Shown: positions 8,030-62,759 of the stretch, piece by piece
Layout: the number at the start of each line of letters is the position of its first letter
Numbering within the stretch: position 1 is the first letter of the stretch
Origin: a virus
Lineage: Duplodnaviria > Heunggongvirae > Uroviricota > Caudoviricetes
IMG/VR virus record: IMGVR_UViG_3300044951_001136
DNA: 64,000 bases
Strand: one strand, 5' to 3'
Position numbers and translations under genes: made by a program
Notes under the pieces: generated by a model
What the model saw: the letters and a program-made list of their open reading frames with translations, nothing else
What the model was told of the DNA's origin: nothing
Database searches by the model: none

Positions 8030-8845
8030 ATGGATTATTATGAAATTTTAGGTGTTACTAAAACCGCCTCACAAGAGGATATCAAAGGGGCCTGGCGAAG
8101 ATTGGCTAGTCAGCATCATCCCGATAAGGGAGGGGATAAAGTCAAATTTCAGGAAACACAAGCTGCGTATGAAACATTAAGTGATGCAAATAAACGCCAG
8201 CAATATGATAATCCCATGCCACAAGGATTTCCGCAGCAAGGTGGAATACCCCCAGGGTTTGAACATATATTTGGTCAAATGTTTGGTCAAAATAATCCTT
8301 TTGACATATTCAGTCAACAACGTAGACAACAACAACCTCAACAACAATTATTTAGAACAACAATAAATATATCATTAGAACAAGCATATAACGGCGGTGA
8401 ACAAATATTAAAACTACAAACACCCACGAATGTACATGCCATAACCATTCAGATTCCTAAAGGGATTCAAAATGATAATCAAATGCGTATAGATAAAGTC
8501 ATAGATGGTGCTAGTTTAATAGTAGATTTTCGGGTTGAACCCCATCTCAAATATGATAGACAAGGTAATGATTTAATTTGCAACCATCCAATTTCCGTGT
8601 TAGATTTGATTATTGGCACAAGTTTTGAATTTGTTACTCTATCAGGAAAAACGCTGGATGTAACAATTAAACCTAAAACTCAACCCTATATTCAATTAAA
8701 ATTAGCGGGACAAGGCATGCCTATACTAAATGCTACTAGCTACGGTGACCAAATTATATTGTTAAAAGCATTCATCCCTGATATAATAGGAGAACAAGTT
8801 ATCAATAGCATTACGGCTTATAAACAACAAAGGAATCAAGCATGA
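8030..8845 (+). CDS. DnaJ-family co-chaperone (J domain + divergent C-terminus)
   Basis: MDYYEILGV...HHPDKGGD J-domain with HPD motif. Confidence 0.8.
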   Translation: MDYYEILGVTKTASQEDIKGAWRRLASQHHPDKGGDKVKFQETQAAYETLSDANKRQQYDNPMPQGFPQQGGIPPGFEHIFGQMFGQNNPFDIFSQQRRQQQPQQQLFRTTINISLEQAYNGGEQILKLQTPTNVHAITIQIPKGIQNDNQMRIDKVIDGASLIVDFRVEPHLKYDRQGNDLICNHPISVLDLIIGTSFEFVTLSGKTLDVTIKPKTQPYIQLKLAGQGMPILNATSYGDQIILLKAFIPDIIGEQVINSITAYKQQRNQA

Positions 8846-11103
8846 ACCATTCACCCGAAATTGATAGCATTATTGAACAAGCGATTCATCATGCTAAAGA
8901 AAGAAAACATCAATATGTAACCGTAGAACATTTACTTCTTGGTTTGATAAATCACAGTGCATTCAAAAAATGCTTGCATAGTTTTGGTGCAGATATTGAA
9001 ACAATGGATCAAGAGATTAAGGCATACTTAGACAGTTTACATGCCATTGTAAGCAAAGAGGATGAAGTAGTACCTCGTAAAACAAATAGTTTAGAACGAG
9101 TTATGAATCGTTCTGTAACACAAGTGTTATTCACCGGTCGTAGGCAAGTAACAACTATTGACTTGTATCTTAGCATTGCGGCAGAAGGGAATAGTCATGC
9201 TCATTATTTCTTGTTGAAATACGGAATCAACAAAAATGAATTTGTAGCACATTGGCAGAAAAATTATAAGCACAACGAAGTGGGTAATCTCACCGAGAAT
9301 CAAGCCGACGAAATTCTAGAAGAATATACCATCAACTTAACACAATTAGCGGCACAAGGTAAACTTGAACCAATGATTGGTCGCGGCAAAGAACTTGACG
9401 ATATCATTAATGTACTTGCTAAACGATTCAAGAGTAATGTATTGATGGTAGGTGACCCTGGGGTTGGTAAAACAGCAATCGCCGAAGGTCTAGCACAGAT
9501 GATGATCAACAAAGAAGTACCTGAATTCTTGCATGATCATCAAATATATAGCTTGGAGATTGGCTCATTGCTTGCAGGAAGTAAATATCGCGGGGACTTT
9601 GAAGAAAAAGTCAAAGCAGTACTGGATGCGTTAAACACAAAGAAAAAGACTATCCTTTTCATTGACGAGGCACATACTATGCAGGGTTCAGGGGGTTCAT
9701 CTACTGGTTCAGTGGACTTCAGTAACATGATTAAACCCGCAATTACTAAAGGTACTCTTAAAGTTATTGCTAGCACAACTTGGGAAGAATACTACGAAAG
9801 TTTTGAAAAGGACCGTGCATTGATGCGTAGATTCTATCGTGTGTCAGTTGATGAACCTAATCACGACACAACTATTCGTATATTGAATGGATTAAGTGCT
9901 AGACTTAATGATTTTCACAATGTTGAAATTACAGATGAGGCAATCAAAGCAGCAGTTGAAAGTGCTGATCGGTATATTCATGACCGAAAGAACCCAGACA
10001 AATCTATTGATTTACTTGATGCTGCTTGCGCTAAACAACGAGTAGCAGAGAACAAAGGGGCAATCATTACCAAAGACCTTGTATTTGATCAAGTTGAACG
10101 ATTCACCGGAGTCCCTGCTGACAAGATGAAGGGTGACAACTTTGATTTGATTCATAATTTAGAATCAAATATCAAGGACAAACTATATGGTCAAGATGAA
10201 ACTGTACAAAAAGTACTTGAACGAATTTATGTTAACTTTGCTGGTATTGGTAATGATAGTAAACCAACAGGTAGTTTCTTATTCTTAGGCCCTACTGGAA
10301 CTGGTAAAACAGAATTTGCCAAACTACTTAGCAAGAACTTGGATATGCCGCTACTTAAGTATGACATGAGTGAGTATTCAGAGAAGCATAGTGTTTCAAG
10401 TTTGATTGGACCTCCTCCGGGCTATGTTGGATTCGGTGATAGTCAAGTGTCGGGTGGTAGATTGATTAATGACTTGAGCAAGAACCCACATAGTATTATG
10501 CTATTTGATGAGGTTGAAAAAGCACATCCAGAAATCTTTAATATCTTTCTACAGATGTTAGATGAAGGGCATCTTACCGGTAGTAATGGCAAGCAAGTTA
10601 ACTGTAAAAACAGTATTATCATTATGACTAGTAACTTGGGTTCTAGTGATAGCGAACGCAACAACATTGGATTTGGCACACAAGAAAAGACCGGTGAAGA
10701 TGACAAAGCATTGAAAGAATTCTTCAAGCCTGAGTTCCGTAATCGTGTTGATTTGATTTGCAAGTTTAACAAGTTGGATACACTTGCTATTAAGAAGATT
10801 GTTATCAAGTTTACCGATGACTTGAAAAAGAGTTTGTTAGACAAACATGAAATTGTAATGAATCTAAGTGAGCCAGTGGTAGAATACTTAGCAGAGCAAG
10901 GATATGATAAGAAAATGGGCGCACGACCATTAAGTCGTAAGATTGATGAATTGATTCGGGTACCTCTAAGTAAGAAAGTCTTGTTTGAGCGCATTAAATC
11001 TGCAACAATCAATGTTGTAATGTCAGCCGGAGCAATTGATTTTGTAGTAACACACAAACTAACAGCAATGGTTGATGACAATGGATTAATTATTGTTAAC
11101 TAA
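8842..11103 (+). CDS. ClpA/Hsp100-family AAA+ unfoldase (two AAA modules, Clp N-domain)
   Basis: Clp_N-like VTVEHLLLGLI; D1 Walker A GDPGVGKTA, Walker B ILFIDEAH; D2 Walker A GPTGTGKTE, Walker B IMLFDEVEKAH; 753 aa like ClpA. Confidence 0.85.
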   Translation: MNHSPEIDSIIEQAIHHAKERKHQYVTVEHLLLGLINHSAFKKCLHSFGADIETMDQEIKAYLDSLHAIVSKEDEVVPRKTNSLERVMNRSVTQVLFTGRRQVTTIDLYLSIAAEGNSHAHYFLLKYGINKNEFVAHWQKNYKHNEVGNLTENQADEILEEYTINLTQLAAQGKLEPMIGRGKELDDIINVLAKRFKSNVLMVGDPGVGKTAIAEGLAQMMINKEVPEFLHDHQIYSLEIGSLLAGSKYRGDFEEKVKAVLDALNTKKKTILFIDEAHTMQGSGGSSTGSVDFSNMIKPAITKGTLKVIASTTWEEYYESFEKDRALMRRFYRVSVDEPNHDTTIRILNGLSARLNDFHNVEITDEAIKAAVESADRYIHDRKNPDKSIDLLDAACAKQRVAENKGAIITKDLVFDQVERFTGVPADKMKGDNFDLIHNLESNIKDKLYGQDETVQKVLERIYVNFAGIGNDSKPTGSFLFLGPTGTGKTEFAKLLSKNLDMPLLKYDMSEYSEKHSVSSLIGPPPGYVGFGDSQVSGGRLINDLSKNPHSIMLFDEVEKAHPEIFNIFLQMLDEGHLTGSNGKQVNCKNSIIIMTSNLGSSDSERNNIGFGTQEKTGEDDKALKEFFKPEFRNRVDLICKFNKLDTLAIKKIVIKFTDDLKKSLLDKHEIVMNLSEPVVEYLAEQGYDKKMGARPLSRKIDELIRVPLSKKVLFERIKSATINVVMSAGAIDFVVTHKLTAMVDDNGLIIVN

Positions 11104-18404: not shown

Positions 18405-20774
18405 ATGAGATTTAATCAAATAGTAGAAAATACAACAGCAGGATCGGTTGCCACCGTAGCACAGCCTATGATGACTCAAACCCGCGAAAATACTAATGTT
18501 CGTGGACTAAAACCAGTACAACAATTAATAAAGGGCAAATCTAAAAAGAAAGGTCCTTACGCTAATAGCATTGTAGAAAGCAAAGTCACTGAAGATGATC
18601 TTTCAGAACAAGACTTAATTGTTGTTCCTGGACAAGGCAGATTAAAAAGAACCGGATTTGTTAAACATGATTTAGATCAAGGTGAACATGAAGGCCACAC
18701 ATTAAAGAACAGTTTACACACTATCGCCCGTGCTGCCAGTGATTTAGACGAGAGATTATCTGTTCAATCTGAATTCCCAGAGTGGGTATCAGAGAAGATT
18801 GGCGCAGCAAAAAGCATGATGGTTAGTGTTATGGATTATCTAATCAGCAGCCAAGAGATGCAAGGTGTCGCGGAGGTTAGTGATGCTACTAAAGCAAGTT
18901 ATTTAGAAAAAGCAAAAGCACAAGTTAAAGGACTTACCCCAGATGCTAAAAAAGGTGAATATAAAGACATTGCTCAACGCATGATTTCACGGAGAGAAAA
19001 AGGTATCGATAGAGTAACACCAAAAGATGTGGAGGAAGGCTCCAAGTATCCTTGGTTAGATAATCCCAGAAAGAACCCCAACCCCAAACCAACAGAACCA
19101 GAGAAAGGTGTGTCAGAAGGCTCCAAGTATCCTTGGTTAGATAGTCCCAGAAAGAAACCAGAACCAGAGAAAGATGTGGCGGAAGGTTACGATCCCGGTG
19201 ATAAGATTACTTGGTATCACAGCAATCATTATCCTGAAATTGAAGGCACCATAGTTGGTTGGAAAGACGGGCATCTTATTGTTAAATCAGTTGATCCAAG
19301 CCCAAGAAACACCGAAAAGACTGTGGCAAAATATCGTGTTCCTAAAAATAATATTTTAAGTCATACAGAGCAAGGTGTGGCGGAAGGCTTTAATGAATCA
19401 TTAGATGATTTGAAATCAAAATATCAACATCACACTTACTTGTCAAGAACATATCTAAAGAGAGGTAACAAAGAAAAGGCTCAGCAGCATCACACTAAAG
19501 CATATGATATCAATCAACAGATAATGAAGCATCCTGATTACGAATTAAAGTTCATTGACGATCCGCGGACAAATGATGCACTTGCAATGAAACATGATAC
19601 AAGATTTAATGAGCAAGGTGTGGCGAAAGGCTCGAAAGGATTGAACGAGTTAGCACCACCTGAGCGTAAAGACGGTCAGGGAGATAGATTTTTCTTTCAG
19701 GAAGACTTTGAAAGCGACGACGGAAAATACATTATTGAAATTTATGCCGTGGCCGACAGTAACTCCTATGCAGTGTCGTTTCATCGTGGAGATAAACAAT
19801 ATGTAATGTATCCAATTGATGGACTTGATGCCGGTGATCTGTCAGAAGGTGCCGATCGGTATGTACAAGAAATTAAACAAAATGCGGCACACGGAAGTCA
19901 AAACGATTTTATAGGATTTTCTAGTATGGATTTGGAAGACTTTATACCTCCGGAGCAAGGTGTGTCAGAAGGCCAGTTAGATGAATTGAATAGAGACACT
20001 GTTACTTCTTACTATGACAAAGCGGAGAAAGATCAAGATAAACAATTTACCACTATTGGTAAAGGTATAAGAGACAATGACCCAAAATCTGCAAATAAAG
20101 CAGGTCATAAATTTTCAATGAGAAGTGTTGGATTGAATCGTGCAGAAAAACGGTTACAAGATAAAAATATAGCAGAAGGTGCTATGCCAGCATCAGTAAT
20201 TCGTGTCAAAGAAAAAATTCGCCTGATGACCGATGCTGAAAAGAAAGAATACTTCAAAGGCAAGACCCAAGCGCAATTACAACAAATGGCTAGGAGACAT
20301 GGCTATGGTGAAAATAGCAAGGTGTACGCCAAGTATGCAACACAAGATGTAGCGGAAGGCTCCAAGTATCCTTGGTTAGATAGTCCCAGAAAGAAACCCA
20401 AACCAACAGAACCAGAGAAAGATGTGGCGGAAGGCAGCTCTCCAAGTCCCTATATGTCAGACAAACAAGCTAACGCAGAGATGAAATTATGCCGTAAAGG
20501 ATACACACCTTCCACCCGCTGGTCCAGATATCCAAATTTCGACAAGGACGAAATTGCTGATATTGGCGCCGGTGGTAAAGAATACAATGTAAAGACTGAT
20601 GCTGCATGGGATGCTGCTAAGAAAAAAGTTAGTGAAGGTGCCAAAGTAGATCGTATGGTTAGTCATATTGAAAAGAGTGAAGAAAAGGCAGGCAAGTCAA
20701 AGAAAGTCGCTAAGAACATTGCTTGGGCAACTGCTAACAAACGCGGCATGTTAGATAACAAGAATAAGAAATAA
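18405..20774 (+). CDS. large charged repetitive protein (789 aa), putative packaged internal virion protein
   Basis: N-term MRFNQIVEN shared with 22370/38916/41464 proteins; about 9 copies of (E/K)QGV(A/S)EG-type motif; SKYPWLDxPRK segment three times. Confidence 0.6.
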   Translation: MRFNQIVENTTAGSVATVAQPMMTQTRENTNVRGLKPVQQLIKGKSKKKGPYANSIVESKVTEDDLSEQDLIVVPGQGRLKRTGFVKHDLDQGEHEGHTLKNSLHTIARAASDLDERLSVQSEFPEWVSEKIGAAKSMMVSVMDYLISSQEMQGVAEVSDATKASYLEKAKAQVKGLTPDAKKGEYKDIAQRMISRREKGIDRVTPKDVEEGSKYPWLDNPRKNPNPKPTEPEKGVSEGSKYPWLDSPRKKPEPEKDVAEGYDPGDKITWYHSNHYPEIEGTIVGWKDGHLIVKSVDPSPRNTEKTVAKYRVPKNNILSHTEQGVAEGFNESLDDLKSKYQHHTYLSRTYLKRGNKEKAQQHHTKAYDINQQIMKHPDYELKFIDDPRTNDALAMKHDTRFNEQGVAKGSKGLNELAPPERKDGQGDRFFFQEDFESDDGKYIIEIYAVADSNSYAVSFHRGDKQYVMYPIDGLDAGDLSEGADRYVQEIKQNAAHGSQNDFIGFSSMDLEDFIPPEQGVSEGQLDELNRDTVTSYYDKAEKDQDKQFTTIGKGIRDNDPKSANKAGHKFSMRSVGLNRAEKRLQDKNIAEGAMPASVIRVKEKIRLMTDAEKKEYFKGKTQAQLQQMARRHGYGENSKVYAKYATQDVAEGSKYPWLDSPRKKPKPTEPEKDVAEGSSPSPYMSDKQANAEMKLCRKGYTPSTRWSRYPNFDKDEIADIGAGGKEYNVKTDAAWDAAKKKVSEGAKVDRMVSHIEKSEEKAGKSKKVAKNIAWATANKRGMLDNKNKK
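19035..19066 (+). repeat. intragenic direct repeat copy 1 (GAAGGCTCCAAGTATCCTTGGTTAGATA...), approximate bounds
   Basis: Same about 30-45 bp DNA string at 19035, 19116 and 20355. Confidence 0.6.
19116..19196 (+). repeat. intragenic direct repeat copy 2, approximate bounds
   Basis: gaaggctccaagtatccttggttagatagtcccagaaagaaacc...gaaccagagaaagatgtggcggaagg shared with copy 3. Confidence 0.6.
20355..20435 (+). repeat. intragenic direct repeat copy 3, approximate bounds
   Basis: As copy 2. Confidence 0.6.
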
Positions 20775-20775
20775 T

Positions 20776-21927
20776 ATGAAACCATCAGATTTTTTAACAG
20801 AACTATCTAACGAAAAGTTAGCACAATACAAAACTGCTGCCGCAGCCGATGCCAGTAAAGCAGATAAAGAAAAAGATTTTGCTCGTGGCAACAAGCGTTT
20901 TAGTGGCATTGTAAAAGCAACTAATAAACAATTTGCAAATGATGTTAAGAAAGAATCAGTTGGTATACCTTATCCAGGAACATATGAAGAAACAAATGAT
21001 ATGTTCAAAGGTTCCGGACAAAGACGCACTGGTACACTAACAACCGAACAAGGTGTGTCGGAGGACAAGTTAAATGAATTAGATATCTTTGCTCCAGTGA
21101 CCACTTATGTTAGATTAGCCAATGGCACATACGTTGCAGCCAGTTGGCGCCGCAACCAAAATTTATCTACTGCAAGTAACTCAGCATCATTTATTGACAT
21201 AAAACCAGTGGCTCCTAATGTTGCTAAACAATTGGGATTAGATCAAAGACTAAATGATCCAGAAAAAAAATACACAGGTGCCGCAACGATTGCATCAGGT
21301 GGCCCTATTCAATCAAGCGGTCCACTTGCTGATAGAACTATTAACGTAGTTGATATTAGCGATCCAAAGGCTGCTACAGACCTCGGTGTTCCTGATACAC
21401 TCTTTGGAAAAATTGCTCAATGGGCGCAACAGCAAGGTCAAAAAGAACAAGGTGTGGCGGAGGAACAACATAGTTGCCCACACTGTAATGGACCAATGTT
21501 CAGTGAAATGATAATGAATGAAAAGAAAGATGCTTGCTACTATAAAGTAAAAAGCCGTTATAAAGTATGGCCAAGTGCCTATGCTAGCGGTGCATTAGTC
21601 AAATGTCGTAAAAAAGGTGCAAGTAATTGGGGTAATAGTAGTAAGAATGAAAGTTCTATACTAGAAGGCATAAATCAAACGGATGAAAGTTTACATGATT
21701 GGTTTAATAAAGAAAAGTGGGTTCGCATGGATACCAAAGGTAATATCAAGGGTCCATGTGCAAGAGAGCCGGGAGAAGGTAAACCAAAATGTTTGCCTCA
21801 AAGTAAAGCACACAGTTTAGGTAAAAAGGGTCGTGCAAGTGCAGCAGCAAGAAAACGCAGAGAAGATCCCAATCCAGAGCGTAGTGGTAAAGCCATCAAT
21901 GTCAACACAAAGAAAACTAAAGGATAA
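20776..21927 (+). CDS. putative internal virion / DNA-binding protein with strongly basic C-terminal tail and Cys cluster
   Basis: EQGVSED and EQGVAEE motifs; CPHCNGP...CYYK; C-term KGRASAAARKRREDPNPERSGKAINVNTKKTKG. Confidence 0.55.
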   Translation: MKPSDFLTELSNEKLAQYKTAAAADASKADKEKDFARGNKRFSGIVKATNKQFANDVKKESVGIPYPGTYEETNDMFKGSGQRRTGTLTTEQGVSEDKLNELDIFAPVTTYVRLANGTYVAASWRRNQNLSTASNSASFIDIKPVAPNVAKQLGLDQRLNDPEKKYTGAATIASGGPIQSSGPLADRTINVVDISDPKAATDLGVPDTLFGKIAQWAQQQGQKEQGVAEEQHSCPHCNGPMFSEMIMNEKKDACYYKVKSRYKVWPSAYASGALVKCRKKGASNWGNSSKNESSILEGINQTDESLHDWFNKEKWVRMDTKGNIKGPCAREPGEGKPKCLPQSKAHSLGKKGRASAAARKRREDPNPERSGKAINVNTKKTKG

Positions 21928-44204: not shown

Positions 44205-44233
44205 TTGACGATAAATGAATTCTATGCTATAAT
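44205..44233 (+). promoter_or_regulatory. sigma70 promoter TTGACG-N17-TGcTATAAT upstream of 44292
   Basis: ttgacg 44205-44210, 17-nt spacer, TGc + tataat 44228-44233. Confidence 0.6.
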
Positions 44234-48961: not shown

Positions 48962-49210
48962 ATGAACAACCAAATTAAATTACCAGCGCAAGAATGGTTA
49001 GGGTATGATCCTGAACAAGGAGATATGCACGGGTATACTTTTGATCAAATGAGAGAGTTCACCAAGTTGATTGTAGGTGAATGTTGTGCCATTCTGAATG
49101 AAATGCACTCGTGGCAGACTATGAATAATCAAGAATACTCAAGTACTTGGCATGATGCTGTAGATCAAGGTATTGATCAAATTAAAGAACATTTTGGAGT
49201 TGAAGAATGA
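48962..49210 (+). CDS. small protein, paralog of 49794..50003 (MNxQIKL ... FGVEE)
   Basis: Start moved to ATG 48962 after GGAGGTGG; shares N-term MNNQIKL and C-term EHFGVEE with the paralog. Confidence 0.45.
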   Translation: MNNQIKLPAQEWLGYDPEQGDMHGYTFDQMREFTKLIVGECCAILNEMHSWQTMNNQEYSSTWHDAVDQGIDQIKEHFGVEE

Positions 49211-49793: not shown

Positions 49794-50003
49794 ATGAACG
49801 AACAAATTAAACTGCTTGCTGAAGAAGCAACTAGAAAATACGACAGGCTAGGTAATGAAATCCCGTTTCCACAACCAGACTTAGAGGTGTTCGCCCGGTT
49901 GATTGTTATTAAATGCCTCGACATTGTTGATAAAAAAGTATCAGGCATGGTAGGAGTCGCTGCGATGAAAGAGATAGAAGAATATTTCGGAGTTGAAGAA
50001 TGA
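49794..50003 (+). CDS. small protein, paralog of 48962..49210
   Basis: MNEQIKL...EYFGVEE. Confidence 0.45.
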   Translation: MNEQIKLLAEEATRKYDRLGNEIPFPQPDLEVFARLIVIKCLDIVDKKVSGMVGVAAMKEIEEYFGVEE

Positions 50004-52365: not shown

Positions 52366-52467
52366 TTAGTATTTAGTCTTGTCAACGGTTCCGTGGGCTG
52401 CCACGTTATATATATGTAGACACAATAATGTTGCTACCAACTTTCATACTTTAAAAGGAAACCACAA

Positions 52468-52827
52468 ATGAAGAAAATCGTCACTGTTATCGCTACTTTA
52501 TTGGCCACTGCCGCCTTGGCTGCTGAGCCAGCCAAGACTACAGCACCCGCTGTTGCTGCACCCGCTGCGGCCCCGTCCAAGAAAGAAGAAGCTAAAAAGA
52601 CTCCAGCTGACAAAGTTGAAGCCGCGGCACCAGCCGCGGCTAAACCAGTAGCAGCACCTGCTAAGGCTACAGCACCAGCCAAAGAAGAACTTAAATTGGC
52701 TAAGAAAAAGGAAGACAAAAAAGTGGATGCCACTAAAAGTGATAAACCTGTCAAGGACAAAAAAGCTACAGATAAAGCTGCTCCAGCAGCACCGGCAGTC
52801 AAGCCAGCAACTCCTGCTTCTAAGTAA
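52468..52827 (+). CDS. secreted Ala/Pro/Lys-rich low-complexity protein (histone-H1/AlgP-like composition)
   Basis: Signal peptide MKKIVTVIATLLATAALAA; KPAAPA/AKK repeats; AAAGGAAACCACAAATG SD; locally GC-rich. Confidence 0.55.
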   Translation: MKKIVTVIATLLATAALAAEPAKTTAPAVAAPAAAPSKKEEAKKTPADKVEAAAPAAAKPVAAPAKATAPAKEELKLAKKKEDKKVDATKSDKPVKDKKATDKAAPAAPAVKPATPASK

Positions 52828-53028
52828 TCTAACAATAGACGACAATAATAGGGACGATGATGGCCCAGAAGATTTGGACTGTCATCGTGCATACAGTCGT
52901 CCTAAAGTCTACGAAGTAGACATAAAGGTTATAGATTTAGATGATGAACCATTATCTGATTATGTAATCGTAAGATTAGCAGTTGCCAGAGCAAAAGCTA
53001 TGCAGAAGTATAGAGAAACCTATATTGA

Positions 53029-53369: not shown

Positions 53370-53639
53370 ATGTCAGAAAATACTTTTCCCAAGATGCCCG
53401 AAATTCGGGTATCAAAAAACGGTTACGAGATTCGTACCGAGATTCTTAAACAAGCACAGCACCTTACTAGCCAAGAGTTTTCATACAAATGGCAAGGCTG
53501 GGAAATGGCTCAATCAAAAGCCCAAGACGGTAGCATCTTAACCAAATTTGGTATGCCAGAGTTCCCGGGACTTGACAAAGTATTGGAAACTGCTGAAAAG
53601 ATGTATGCTTTCGTAAACCAAAACACACCTAAGAAGTAA
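53370..53639 (+). CDS. hypothetical protein (89 aa)
   Basis: TAAGGAG SD. Confidence 0.5.
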   Translation: MSENTFPKMPEIRVSKNGYEIRTEILKQAQHLTSQEFSYKWQGWEMAQSKAQDGSILTKFGMPEFPGLDKVLETAEKMYAFVNQNTPKK

Positions 53640-53654
53640 TTCTTACCCAAATAA

Positions 53655-53680
53655 TGCCCCTTAATTGGGGCGTTTCTGCC
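53655..53680 (+). terminator. probable intrinsic terminator
   Basis: gcccc-ttaatt-ggggcg followed by tttctgcc (weak U-tract). Confidence 0.4.
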
Positions 53681-53709
53681 TTGACATTAAATGAATTTGG
53701 GTATATAAT
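53681..53709 (+). promoter_or_regulatory. perfect sigma70 consensus promoter TTGACA-N17-TATAAT
   Basis: ttgaca 53681-86, 17-nt spacer, tataat 53704-09. Confidence 0.7.
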
Positions 53710-53744
53710 ACAATCTTAGACAGTTAATTAAAGGACTCAAAATG
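53681..53744 (+). repeat. 64-bp perfect direct repeat copy 1 carrying sigma70 consensus promoter + 5'UTR + SD + ATG
   Basis: Identical to 54068..54131 base for base. Confidence 0.85.
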
Positions 53745-54071
53745 ATTTTATCTGACTATGCTGAATTCTCTAAAAATGCTGAATACAAACTTGTTGAAGG
53801 TGTTGTAGGACCTACTAGTGTATATAAACTCAAACGCATTGTCTCTAATGGTATTGGCGTTGATTTGACACATAGTAACTATTACTTTTCCAAGCAATTG
53901 AATACATTGATTTCTATGGGTCGCGGTGGAATTGGCACTAAAGGTAAGACACTGACATTGGACAAATATCGCAAATACAACCTGCGTGAAAAGTTCAAAA
54001 ACACTGTTTATAGTCGCAGTATCAAAGTTGATAGTGCTGAGATTCGGGTGTCCGCAATTAACCAAATTTGA
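53742..54071 (+). CDS. hypothetical protein (109 aa)
   Basis: ORF driven by repeat-borne promoter. Confidence 0.5.
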   Translation: MILSDYAEFSKNAEYKLVEGVVGPTSVYKLKRIVSNGIGVDLTHSNYYFSKQLNTLISMGRGGIGTKGKTLTLDKYRKYNLREKFKNTVYSRSIKVDSAEIRVSAINQI

Positions 54072-54096
54072 CATTAAATGAATTTGGGTATATAAT
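54068..54096 (+). promoter_or_regulatory. perfect sigma70 consensus promoter TTGACA-N17-TATAAT
   Basis: Read in sequence. Confidence 0.7.
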
Positions 54097-54131
54097 ACAA
54101 TCTTAGACAGTTAATTAAAGGACTCAAAATG
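54068..54131 (+). repeat. 64-bp perfect direct repeat copy 2; its TTGACA contains the TGA stop of the upstream gene
   Basis: Identical to 53681..53744. Confidence 0.85.
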
Positions 54132-54770
54132 GCTAACTATCACAAACCTGCTCTCCTGAATATCAACGCTGATGACGCATGGGCTGCGGCCTGTCAAGCA
54201 CAACGCCTCAATCAAGGTTATATCAAGGTTGATGCAGATGCTCCCGCTGGTCAAACTAATCGCCGATTGGTACTGAATTTGCTTGCTGAACCCAGTATGA
54301 TTACCGCAGAAGATGTTGAGCAAGGTAAATTGGTTCGACAGTTCTATCAAGCATTCACATTCAAAATCCTTAAAGGTATCAAGTTGTCGGAGTTTGACAA
54401 CACTGCAATGCTACTTGCCAATCGTGAAACTATTGAAACTAATTATGATATCGCAGTACTCACTAGTTTGCCTTCATGCTACGAGCGTGGCATGAAACGA
54501 CAAACTGTGGACCAGCGAGTTGCGTTTGCTACCGGTGGATTCATTGGCCAACTGACTGATAAAGTCTCGGTCAGGATTGAAGTTCTCAAAACTTTCTATT
54601 CGCAACAATGGGACACCAACTATGTCACTGGCATCACCAGTGATGACCAAGTGTTGTTCTTTGCATTCAAACATCAACTAGAAGTGGGTATGATGGTTGA
54701 CCTGCAGGGCACTGTCAAAGCACACCGTGACAATGTTACTCAATTGAATCGGGTAAAGGTAATCGCATGA
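54129..54770 (+). CDS. hypothetical protein (213 aa)
   Basis: ORF. Confidence 0.5.
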   Translation: MANYHKPALLNINADDAWAAACQAQRLNQGYIKVDADAPAGQTNRRLVLNLLAEPSMITAEDVEQGKLVRQFYQAFTFKILKGIKLSEFDNTAMLLANRETIETNYDIAVLTSLPSCYERGMKRQTVDQRVAFATGGFIGQLTDKVSVRIEVLKTFYSQQWDTNYVTGITSDDQVLFFAFKHQLEVGMMVDLQGTVKAHRDNVTQLNRVKVIA

Positions 54771-54892
54771 AAACGATATTGGGTATATTGCTATTGACTT
54801 TTATCTCAGGATGCAGTACAATAGCGGGAGCAGTCAAGGGAGTCGGTGAAGATGTAAAACACGGGACTAATGTTATTTTTGAATTAGCATGA
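54767..54892 (+). CDS. entericidin-like small lipoprotein (41 aa), not in ORF track
   Basis: MKTILGILLLTFISGCSTIAGAVKGVGEDVKHGTNVIFELA: lipobox ISGC plus GxGEDxKHxGN core resembling EcnA/EcnB; ATGA-coupled on both sides. Confidence 0.55.
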   Translation: MKTILGILLLTFISGCSTIAGAVKGVGEDVKHGTNVIFELA

Positions 54893-57174: not shown

Positions 57175-57214
57175 CAGTTGACCTTTTATTACTGCTTGAA
57201 CATTTTGGAGTTGA

Positions 57215-57394
57215 ATGATGATTAAACTTTGGTTGGCATTTATTATCTTTGCAGCATTGATTCATTTTGGTATTACTGTCTGGCGAAAGATGGAAAGAAA
57301 AGAGCGTTGGTCATTGACAAAAACTGCTGTCTATAGTATACTTGTCTCATTGCTAGCTGTTCTAGTAATAACTGTAATTGTAATTTTATTTTAA
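57215..57394 (+). CDS. small two-TM membrane protein (59 aa), not in ORF track; possible NfeD-like partner of SPFH protein
   Basis: MMIKLWLAFIIFAALIHFGITVW...ILVSLLAVLVITVIVILF. Confidence 0.4.
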   Translation: MMIKLWLAFIIFAALIHFGITVWRKMERKERWSLTKTAVYSILVSLLAVLVITVIVILF

Positions 57395-61501: not shown

Positions 61502-61556
61502 TCTTTAGCAAAGTAAGAGGACTCAAAGACAAATTGCAAAAAGGTAAAATTACTAT

Positions 61557-62759
61557 ATGACTTCAGAAAATAAACTAATACATTGTTCTTTTTGTAACAC
61601 CCACAAAGATAAAGTTAAAAAACTTATCGTAAGTGAAGATGTTGCAATTTGCAGCGATTGTATTGTATTATGTAATAACTTGGTTGAAGATGATAGTTTA
61701 GTAGTTGATACTCAATCCAAAGAAGAAGTTAAATACGATCCTTCTGATATCAAGGAATACTTAGATGAGCATGTTATCGGTCAAGATAATGCTAAAATGG
61801 TATTGAGTGTTGCTATTGCTAATCATTACAAACGCATTACCTATCCGCCAAAAGACTTAGAAATTCAAAAGGGCAATGTGTTACTGATCGGGCCCACGGG
61901 ATCAGGTAAAACTTTGCTGGCAAAGACAGTGGCAAAATATCTTAAAGTTCCTTTTGTTGTAACTGATGCTACTAGTTTGACAGAAGCTGGTTATGTGGGT
62001 GATGATGTTGAATCAATGATTAGTATGTTAGTTAATGCTGCTGGTGGAGATCCTAGACTGGCGGAACGCGGCATTGTGTTTGTTGATGAAATTGACAAGA
62101 TTGCCCGCAAGAGTGAAAGTGCAAGTATTACCCGTGATGTGTCGGGTGAGGGTGTTCAACAAGCATTGCTTAAATTAGTAGAAGGTACAATTTGTCGTAT
62201 CCCAGCAGCAGGTGGTAGAAAGCATCCTGGTGGTGATATGTTAGAAATTGATACAAAAAACATCCTATTCATAGCAGGAGGTGCATTTGTCGGGTTGAAA
62301 GACTTGATCAGTGATCGTAAAAATGGTTCTAATATTGGATTTAGTGCAGATATCAAAGATAAAAAGGCAGAGGGTGATCTTAAAGAAGTTACCCCAGATG
62401 ATTTGACCAAATATGGAATGATTCCCGAATTTATCGGTCGTTTCACTACTACAGTTAGTATTGGTGAATTAAACAAAGAGGAATTACTCAAAGTTCTTAC
62501 TGAAGTTAAAAACAACTATATTGAACAGTACAAATATCTGTTGAGTATTGATAATATTAAGTTGACATTTTCTCCAAGTGCATTGGATCAAATAGTTGAA
62601 AACTGCTTAAAGCTCAAGACAGGGGCACGTGGATTACACACTGAAATAGAAAAAGTTTTGATGCCGGCAATGTTTAATACGAAGAAATACAGAGAAAATA
62701 ACATTACCAAGATAGATATATCAAGAGAGCAAGTTTTAGAACCAAAATCAATGATTTAA
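61557..62759 (+). CDS. clpX: ClpX ATP-dependent unfoldase
   Basis: Zn-binding N-domain [32 protein letters not shown]; Walker [15 protein letters not shown]; VFVDEIDKI; ClpX-like length. Confidence 0.9.

Follow-up and report, generated by a model that had tools for sequence, protein, structure and literature searches.

A promoter–leader cassette repeated in front of small genes of uncultured jumbo phages, and a likely recent copying event behind one identical pair

The repeat and the genes around it

The DNA analyzed here, a stretch of 64,000 nucleotides (hereafter the window), carries nearly all of its genes on the + strand, has a G+C content of ~37%, and encodes a family-B DNA polymerase, an ATP-dependent DNA ligase, ClpX, a ClpB-like ATPase, an SPFH protein, and an endolysin. 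The DNA polymerase is 42–48% identical to those of the Rak2-like, Atu_ph07, Phosso, and XaC1 jumbo phages, with weaker matches to many T4-like phages. Near-identical DNA for the locus described below was absent from 50,697 GenBank phage records, and homologs of one of its genes (gene B) were found at 27 IMG/VR loci (74–100% amino acid identity), several of them on contigs of 211–303 kb. Given the kinship of the polymerase, the lack of a deposited near match, and the 211–303 kb relatives, we conclude that the window is part of an uncultured jumbo phage. The window also contains a chaperone/protease-like gene set (8030–11103 and 61557–62759); the ClpB-like ATPase matches phrog_4871 (E = 3e-235), ClpX carries a zinc finger, and an ORF starting MDYYEILGVTK is putatively J-domain-like, as judged by eye.

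The 64-mer TTGACATTAAATGAATTTGGGTATATAATACAATCTTAGACAGTTAATTAAAGGACTCAAAATG occurs exactly twice in the window, at 53681–53744 and 54068–54131, both times on the + strand and without a single mismatch; the two copies are 387 bp apart. No 64-mer repeat was found in 100 dinucleotide-preserving shuffles, and the 64-kb window contains no third copy at up to three mismatches. The identity begins at the first T of TTGACA, where the preceding bases differ (c and t), and ends at the G of an ATG, after which the copies continue with ATT and GCT, respectively. Both copies match TTGACA-N17-TATAAT at 12 of 12 positions. Copy 1 comprises the −35 hexamer TTGACA (53681–53686), a 17-nt spacer, the −10 hexamer TATAAT (53704–53709), a predicted start site at about 53716–53720, a Shine–Dalgarno (SD) sequence, AAAGGA (53730–53735), and the ATG of gene A (53742–53744). 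The corresponding elements of copy 2 are at 54068–54073 (−35), 54091–54096 (−10), and 54117–54122 (SD), and it ends in the ATG of gene B (54129–54131). The TGA stop codon of gene A (54069–54071) lies inside the −35 hexamer of copy 2. Thus, the initial annotation was right to describe a perfect direct repeat with a consensus promoter in each copy, a 3′ end at the start codon of the downstream gene, and an overlap between the second −35 hexamer and the stop codon of the first gene.

The left border of this region is formed by w3, a backbone gene encoding 89 amino acids (53370–53639, +). It is mosaic: its product is only 60% identical in amino acid sequence to that of a sister contig, IMGVR_UViG_3300034095_000605 (L028), as against 97–100% for the flanking genes, and its 5′ part matches the allele of another relative, L012 (53330–53620). 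After w3 and directly before copy 1, outside the repeat, lies a G+C-rich hairpin, GCCCCTTAATTGGGGC (53656–53671, +; −13.7 kcal/mol, z −2.6), which is kept in the positional orthologs L001, L004, L012, L024, and L022, with a conserved stem and a variable loop. It receives a terminator score only on the − strand, its T-tract on the + strand being weak, and is probably a terminator or insulator at the head of the array.

Gene A (53742–54071, +) is an accessory ORFan of 109 amino acids represented by only 7 protein clusters among 5.8 billion proteins, as compared with 1234 for gene B (54129–54770, +), a conserved backbone gene of 213 amino acids. Gene B heads the run B-w6-w7-w8-w9-ATP-dependent DNA ligase (to 57174), and no + strand terminator was predicted between gene B and the next consensus promoter, at 57314. 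The two proteins had been suggested as possible remote paralogs; they gave no alignment at E ≤ 100. Pfam and PADLOC returned nothing on the function of A, B, or their neighbors, and PDB sequence matches were at chance level only (E > 0.3). Gene B had only weak matches in PHROGs, to families without assigned function, and its AlphaFold model was poor (pLDDT 56.8). A lipoprotein-like ORF of 41 amino acids, MKTILGILLLTFISGCS... (54767–54892), overlaps the gene B stop codon, and the sister contig has ~167 extra nucleotides directly after it (about 54872–54887). On the other side of the locus, an Ala/Lys/Pro-rich ORF of 119 amino acids with a signal-peptide-like start (52468–52827, +) lies within a region (52434–52892) of low-complexity sequence in which it is mirrored by long antisense ORFs; among relatives, this ORF is conserved only partly.

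Scored with the matrix of the cassette family described below, both copies reach 80.8 bits and are the sole window sequences that score as cassettes. The only other match above background is a partial relative, TTGACGATAAATGAATTCTATGCTATAAT (44205–44233, +), which has the −35 hexamer and the first half of the spacer in common with the cassette, but not the rest, and scores 0.6 bits, where shuffles reach −18.5 at most. The other consensus promoters of the window (7995, 43661, 46275, and 57314) lack the cassette spacer and leader. The 9-mer GGACTCAAA, reported in the initial annotation to recur upstream of clpX at 61513, is in fact at 61519, and its recurrence is at chance level (0.52 extra matches expected; 3 of 100 shuffles reach 3 matches).

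The genome had also been called otherwise non-repetitive. It is not: there are repeat families in coding DNA at 19.0–21.5 kb and a 26-nt repeat at gene junctions. The former comprise several families of imperfect direct repeats (25–79 nt; 19012–21464) inside the ORFs 18405–20774 and 20776–21927, indicating an internally repetitive protein with units such as ...EQGVAEG.... The latter, AAGAACATTTTGGAGTTGAAGAATGA, is a second kind of junction repeat (49185–49210, 49978–50003, and 57196–57221) with a GGAG SD sequence and an ATGA stop/start overlap. The blastn segments shared by the window and the sister contig break at its first two copies, where the sister contig has ~860 and ~230 extra nucleotides. 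Gene-junction repeats other than the promoter cassette thus seem to mediate indels as well. Within the cassette itself there is a short direct repeat, TTGACA-TTAAAT (positions 1–12) and TAGACAGTTAAT (positions 37–48), with its units 36 nt apart and both in the conserved core (53681–53692 and 53717–53728 in copy 1; 54068–54079 and 54104–54115 in copy 2); it may mark a tandem site for protein binding or have arisen by coincidence.

A cassette family in related jumbo phages

The 29-mer TTGACAWTAAATGNNTTTGGGTATATAAT from the cassette has matches in more than 119 IMG/VR stretches, all from related uncultured jumbo phages, and at least 352 distinct cassette copies were counted in the DNA of the matches listed. 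Among these matches, the copies occupy the interval from a stop codon to an ATG, in the orientation of the genes, with the ATG at cassette offset 62–64 in 73% of them, and they form arrays that always run on one strand, with up to 7 cassettes at a median spacing of 329 bp. In 148 of 337 copies (44%), the TGA inside TTGACA terminates the upstream ORF, which in ~105 more ends 3–7 nt before TTGACA. The ORFs downstream are small (median 88 amino acids) and fall into at least 68 unrelated families, the ten largest of which had no Pfam match above threshold. One contig of 264 kb carries cassettes at three separate loci, and at all 27 related loci where a gene B homolog and its upstream region are both present, there are 1–3 cassettes, 310–755 bp apart. 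The motif was absent from 185,579 bacterial and archaeal genomes, where it might have appeared as a host promoter mimic or in a prophage; deposited GenBank phage genomes gave only a chance match (E = 0.5), and this phage's own variant (GAATTT) was found in only two contigs, both unrelated, of the JGI metagenomes. The cassette is a lineage-wide element found ahead of many small genes, and the repeat is no duplication peculiar to this phage. The initial annotation had allowed that the repeat might be simply the common early-promoter consensus of the phage. Half of this stands: the first 47 nt are a lineage-wide consensus, with hundreds of copies in relatives. Against it, the 64-kb window has only two copies, and its other sigma70 promoters are without the cassette spacer and leader.

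We considered the locus between w3 and gene B across relatives. Its flanks are conserved in all of them (w51179-w51465-(w0)-w1-w2-w3 on the left and B-w6-w7-w8-w9-ligase on the right), and the slot between w3 and B is hyperplastic, ranging from 0.4 kb in the window to ~2.3 kb, with differing ORFs. At the head of the array in relatives, the conserved G+C-rich hairpin after w3 is followed at once by the first cassette. Four different array contexts contain gene A, and in each of them its ATG and its TGA are both joined directly to a cassette. Between the window and L018, similarity extends from the TTGACA of copy 1 to the ATG of copy 2, and gene A is 88.5% identical in nucleotide sequence, as compared with 65–76% for backbone genes; between the window and L155, similarity begins at the cassette. 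Because the breakpoints fall at cassette edges, gene A is more similar than the backbone, and its contexts are four, gene A bears the signature of exchange between lineages with cassettes as crossover sites. The term "mobile promoter unit", offered in the initial annotation, is therefore apt only in the sense of the PeSL (promoter-early stem-loop) cassettes of T4-type phages (Arbiol et al. 2010, PMC2839356; Comeau et al. 2014, PMC4122927), namely as a shared sequence at which unrelated genes swap by homologous recombination, and not in the sense of an autonomous element.

Conservation within the cassette is uneven. The first ~47 nt, comprising the −35 hexamer, spacer, −10 hexamer, and start-site region, are nearly invariant, and the last 17 nt of the leader vary freely. 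The spacer holds 21.8–25.6 bits of information, the lower figure coming from a subset chosen not to match the retrieval pattern. After the −10 hexamer follows A.A.tCTTAgACAGTtAA, with about 19 bits over 18 positions outside the search pattern, and then an A-rich stretch with GGA at positions 53–55. Of 44 core columns, 89% show no variation among the positional orthologs of copy 1, as compared with 29% of third codon positions in w3, the adjacent gene. Pairs of cassettes within a locus are no more alike than pairs from different loci, either in the core (0.836 versus 0.828) or in the leader (0.499 versus 0.493; positions 45–61 are ~50% alike). This equality rules out general concerted evolution as the cause of core conservation and indicates that the core is held by selection, with the leader essentially free. 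From these comparisons we conclude that the first ~47 nt are kept constant family-wide by selection.

RNA structure does not mark the unit as a whole. The leader is less structured than its shuffles (z +0.8 to +1.4), the 64-nt unit folds at −3.7 kcal/mol (z +0.75), and no Rfam family was found in the leader or the region at E ≤ 1. Copy 2 together with the last 9 nt of gene A can form an AT-rich hairpin across the −35 hexamer (−6.1 kcal/mol), which is at background level. We also tried, as a general cause of spacer conservation, a stem-loop enclosing the −35 hexamer, with its 5′ arm, ATACCCAAAN, just upstream and the spacer sequence NTTTGGGTAT as its 3′ arm. This candidate, first credited to ~20% of members, was rejected after a matched control placed the enrichment only in the tail, where strong stem-loops (≤ −12 kcal/mol) occur in 14 of 314 members (~4.5%) versus 3 of 314 controls; in-register arm pairs showed no excess over permuted arms. 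The arm variants aaag/cttt, gaat/attc, and aatac/gtatt look compensatory. A minority of members, among them L110 4458(−), L061 5773(−), L082 2817(+), and L075 620(+), do have a perfect stem-loop of 10–15 bp around the −35 hexamer, whose arms change together (cccaaag/ctttggg, cccgaat/attcggg, and cccaatac/gtattggg), as in the classical PeSL form.

The conservation of the spacer and start-site region goes far beyond the need of sigma70, and something beyond a plain promoter may be encoded there. Because ~22 bits in the spacer and ~19 bits at the start site exceed what RNA polymerase needs, one could propose that the ~47 invariant bases are the recognition site of a dedicated phage-encoded protein, either an on/off regulator of a cassette regulon or a recombination factor, although we hold this specific proposal to be decidedly unlikely. 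If a recombination factor did read the core, the arrays would capture genes in the manner of an integron, with attachment sites that also act as promoters and provide the gene before them with its stop codon.

Origin of the identical pair

Among 547 within-locus pairs, this phage's is the only one identical at 64 of 64 positions; the next best reaches 61 of 64. For comparison, the closest relatives, L154, L155, and L158, were retrieved from ENA. In both L154 and L158, one cassette precedes gene A and another separates it from gene B, and the two differ at 6 sites, all in the first 34 nt; a third cassette of L158, in front of an ORF of 111 amino acids, is identical to that phage's A cassette at 61 of 62 positions. 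L155 has a different upstream gene, and its B cassette matches the window's at 63 of 64 positions. Position 14 is A in both window copies and G in L154, L155, and L158; an A is found there in only 11 of 179 other members. Since L154 and L158 carry the A–B arrangement with diverged cassettes, the arrangement is older than the identity.

The sister contig is informative here. It represents a distinct genome, 96–99% identical to the window, with a different w3 allele and several indels, and it has the same identical cassette pair, with no differences across 53700–54800 (cassette–A–cassette–B). By comparison, the flanks differ by 0.3–4%, neighboring bins of 100 nt contain 0–10 differences, and w3 has ~100. 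This suggests that the block 53700–54800 was recently exchanged or swept. The absence of differences between distinct genomes also speaks against an artefact and favors a recent origin or spread of the block.

As leaders in the family are only ~50% alike and other pairs agree at 61 of 64 positions at most, the identity of the leaders needs a recent copying event, by gene conversion or duplication, which is what the initial annotation had proposed. The simplest reading of the comparison with relatives would be that a single change was copied between pre-existing cassettes by gene conversion. The identity of the leaders in this phage is then most likely not functional and stems from a recent copy event, a short-tract gene conversion. 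Three close relatives and one shared derived base, A14, point to gene conversion over duplication by insertion; a parallel change to A14 is conceivable, with an A at position 14 in those 11 other members. A conversion tract would have to cover differences within a few nucleotides of the ends of homology, and copying the whole unit would be easier. We therefore favor, with fair confidence, the reading that the repeat consists of two copies of a lineage-specific early promoter–leader cassette that offers homology for gene exchange, and that their identity arose through a recent conversion-like copy event.

The main alternative to gene conversion is that both copies were made by the arrival of gene A through cassette-mediated recombination. 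A unit of cassette plus A, carried by a PeSL-type mini-circle or by an unequal crossover between co-infecting genomes, would have recombined into a resident cassette before gene B, leaving the same cassette on both sides of A. Much about gene A would suit such a history: it is laterally shared, with its 88.5% nucleotide identity above the 65–76% of the backbone; it is rare (the 7 clusters noted above) and is bounded by cassettes exactly at its ATG and TGA; and it lies within the block 53700–54800, which has no differences from the sister contig between flanks that differ by 0.3–4%. Moreover, excision and integration of mini-circles at such cassettes have been shown experimentally for phages RB49 and phi1 (PMC2839356). 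However, the arrangement already exists in L154 and L158 with cassettes differing at 6 of 64 sites, one crossover between non-identical cassettes should give two reciprocal chimeras rather than identical copies, and the derived A14 is present in both copies. We consider an origin of the pair in the arrival of gene A rather unlikely.

Selection could in principle maintain the identity, if a shared regulator, a protein or a small RNA acting on the 5′UTR or ribosome-binding site, needed the same leader at both genes. The strong family-wide constraint on the first 47 nt, including 15–18 nt around and after the start site, would fit this, as would the identity of the last 30 nt before three unrelated genes in the sub-clade formed by the window, L154, L155, and L158. 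But the last 17 nt vary freely in the family, and at positions 45–61 pairs from one locus resemble each other no more than pairs from different loci; the leader in front of a given gene differs among the phages that have its orthologs; and the leader has neither structure nor an Rfam family. Strong selection for an identical leader, which the initial annotation had offered as an option, is thus very improbable.

Least probable of all is that the pair is an assembly artefact or an autonomous MITE- or IS-like mobile element with an outward promoter: perfect short repeats can come from mis-assembly and mobile promoters are known in bacteria, but the repeat is shorter than a sequencing read, the distinct sister contig has the same pair, and the independent assemblies L154, L158, L018, and L153 have the same architecture with diverged cassettes, while a mobile element is opposed by the lack of terminal inverted repeats, target duplications, and a nearby transposase, by the exact placement of every copy, from a stop codon to an ATG and in the orientation of the genes, and by the absence of the motif from the bacterial and archaeal genomes searched. 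The artefact that the initial annotation had named as its own refutation is unlikely already on the evidence of the sister contig and two further independent assemblies that share the architecture.

Proposed mode of action and comparison with known systems

Each copy takes up the entire intergenic space, from a stop codon to the following ATG, and we propose that the host RNA polymerase recognizes it there as a strong promoter of the sigma70 type (TTGACA-17-TATAAT). Transcription would initiate ~7 nt after TATAAT, near 53716–53720 in copy 1 and 54103–54107 in copy 2, giving a short unstructured leader of ~24 nt with the SD sequence 6 nt before the ATG. Copy 1, placed after the hairpin, would head the array and serve the accessory gene A; transcription of gene B, and probably of the genes that follow it as far as the DNA ligase, would start from copy 2. 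Since there is no terminator before copy 2, read-through from copy 1 should add to this, so that the genes from B to the ligase would be transcribed from both promoters. We infer promoter activity, early timing, the start site, and the mechanism and direction of recombination from the sequence; for promoter strength, timing, and start site, the basis is the sigma70 consensus only.

The second proposed role concerns gene exchange. In the same-strand ORFan arrays of the variable loci, the cassette is the only sequence that otherwise unrelated genes have in common, and it provides 47–64 bp of homology between them. Homology of this order is what T4-type recombination systems need (PMC2839356). 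By analogy with the role described for PeSL, genes may be inserted, deleted, and exchanged through this shared homology by the general recombination of the phage.

The 64/64 identity itself would then be an ordinary by-product of recombination, a recent gene conversion between neighboring cassettes. The family-level picture is of more interest than the identity, with its 47-nt core, stop codons in the −35 hexamer, and long ORFan arrays. It extends the idea of promoter cassettes as linkers for modular gene shuffling from cultured T4-type coliphages and vibriophages to uncultured freshwater jumbo phages, an abundant lineage. The form found here is stripped down and far more stereotyped, with an intergenic space fixed at 57 nt, the stop codon inside the −35 hexamer, arrays of up to 7 cassettes, and dozens of ORFan families. 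The cassette could serve as a marker for accessory, probably host-takeover, gene sets in metagenomes and for tracing gene flow, and the extreme conservation of its spacer and start site raises the testable question of what else reads this sequence.

Several known systems resemble the cassette in part. The early promoters of T4 depend on the host sigma70, surpass host promoters in their match to the consensus, and have extra conserved positions outside the hexamers. The cassette is like them in its match to the consensus and in the extra conservation outside the hexamers, but what is conserved here is the spacer together with the first ~12 bases of the predicted transcript, and not an A/T-rich, UP-like region farther upstream. 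The morons of lambdoid phages are likewise single accessory genes with a promoter of their own; they lack shared conserved flanks, however, and usually have their own terminator, whereas the shared cassette is here the presumed vehicle of exchange.

Integron arrays share with the present ones a series of small, unrelated, same-strand ORFs, mostly without assigned function, a repeated junction, and a variable gene content. By contrast, the junctions here carry their own promoter, integron cassettes being promoterless, and exchange presumably proceeds through general homologous recombination. The junction contains no attC-like imperfect palindrome beyond TTAATTAA, and the genes scanned around the array included no integrase. 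We rejected both integron and transposon (IS/MITE) models, as their defining features fail: there is no attC, no integrase nearby, and no terminal inverted repeat or target duplication, and the orientation is fixed.

The closest parallel is with the PeSL cassettes of T4-type phages. Both have a near-consensus sigma70-like promoter with a 17-nt spacer (12 of 12 positions here, where activity is judged from the consensus), and both span the space from stop codon to ATG with an SD sequence at the 3′ end, the stop codon here lying even inside the −35 hexamer in 44% of copies, copy 2 included. Both are repeated many times per genome and are concentrated in hyperplastic regions, where they run as an unbroken series between small ORFans, the set of which varies from one related phage to another. 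Indels and replacements have their breakpoints in the cassettes (here in the window versus L018, in the window versus L155, and in the contexts of gene A), and degraded "half" copies occur, such as that at 44205 in the window. PeSL cassettes are further characterized by demonstrated promoter and terminator activity and by recombining with one another to form mini-circles. The cassette differs from PeSL in that the defining stem-loop, a stable terminator or attenuator, is absent from the 64-bp unit, the hairpin near copy 1 being separate and upstream, and in that the upstream gene ends inside the −35 hexamer or at most 7 nt from it in ~75% of copies, which, because the gene ends so close, leaves these copies with neither a terminator nor an AT-rich upstream region. 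Its conservation is also far tighter, with ~47 nearly invariant nucleotides, including the spacer and start site, at a fixed length, and its carriers are uncultured jumbo phages only distantly related to T4. We accordingly class the cassette, on its predicted properties, as PeSL-like in function but as a variant rather than a typical member.
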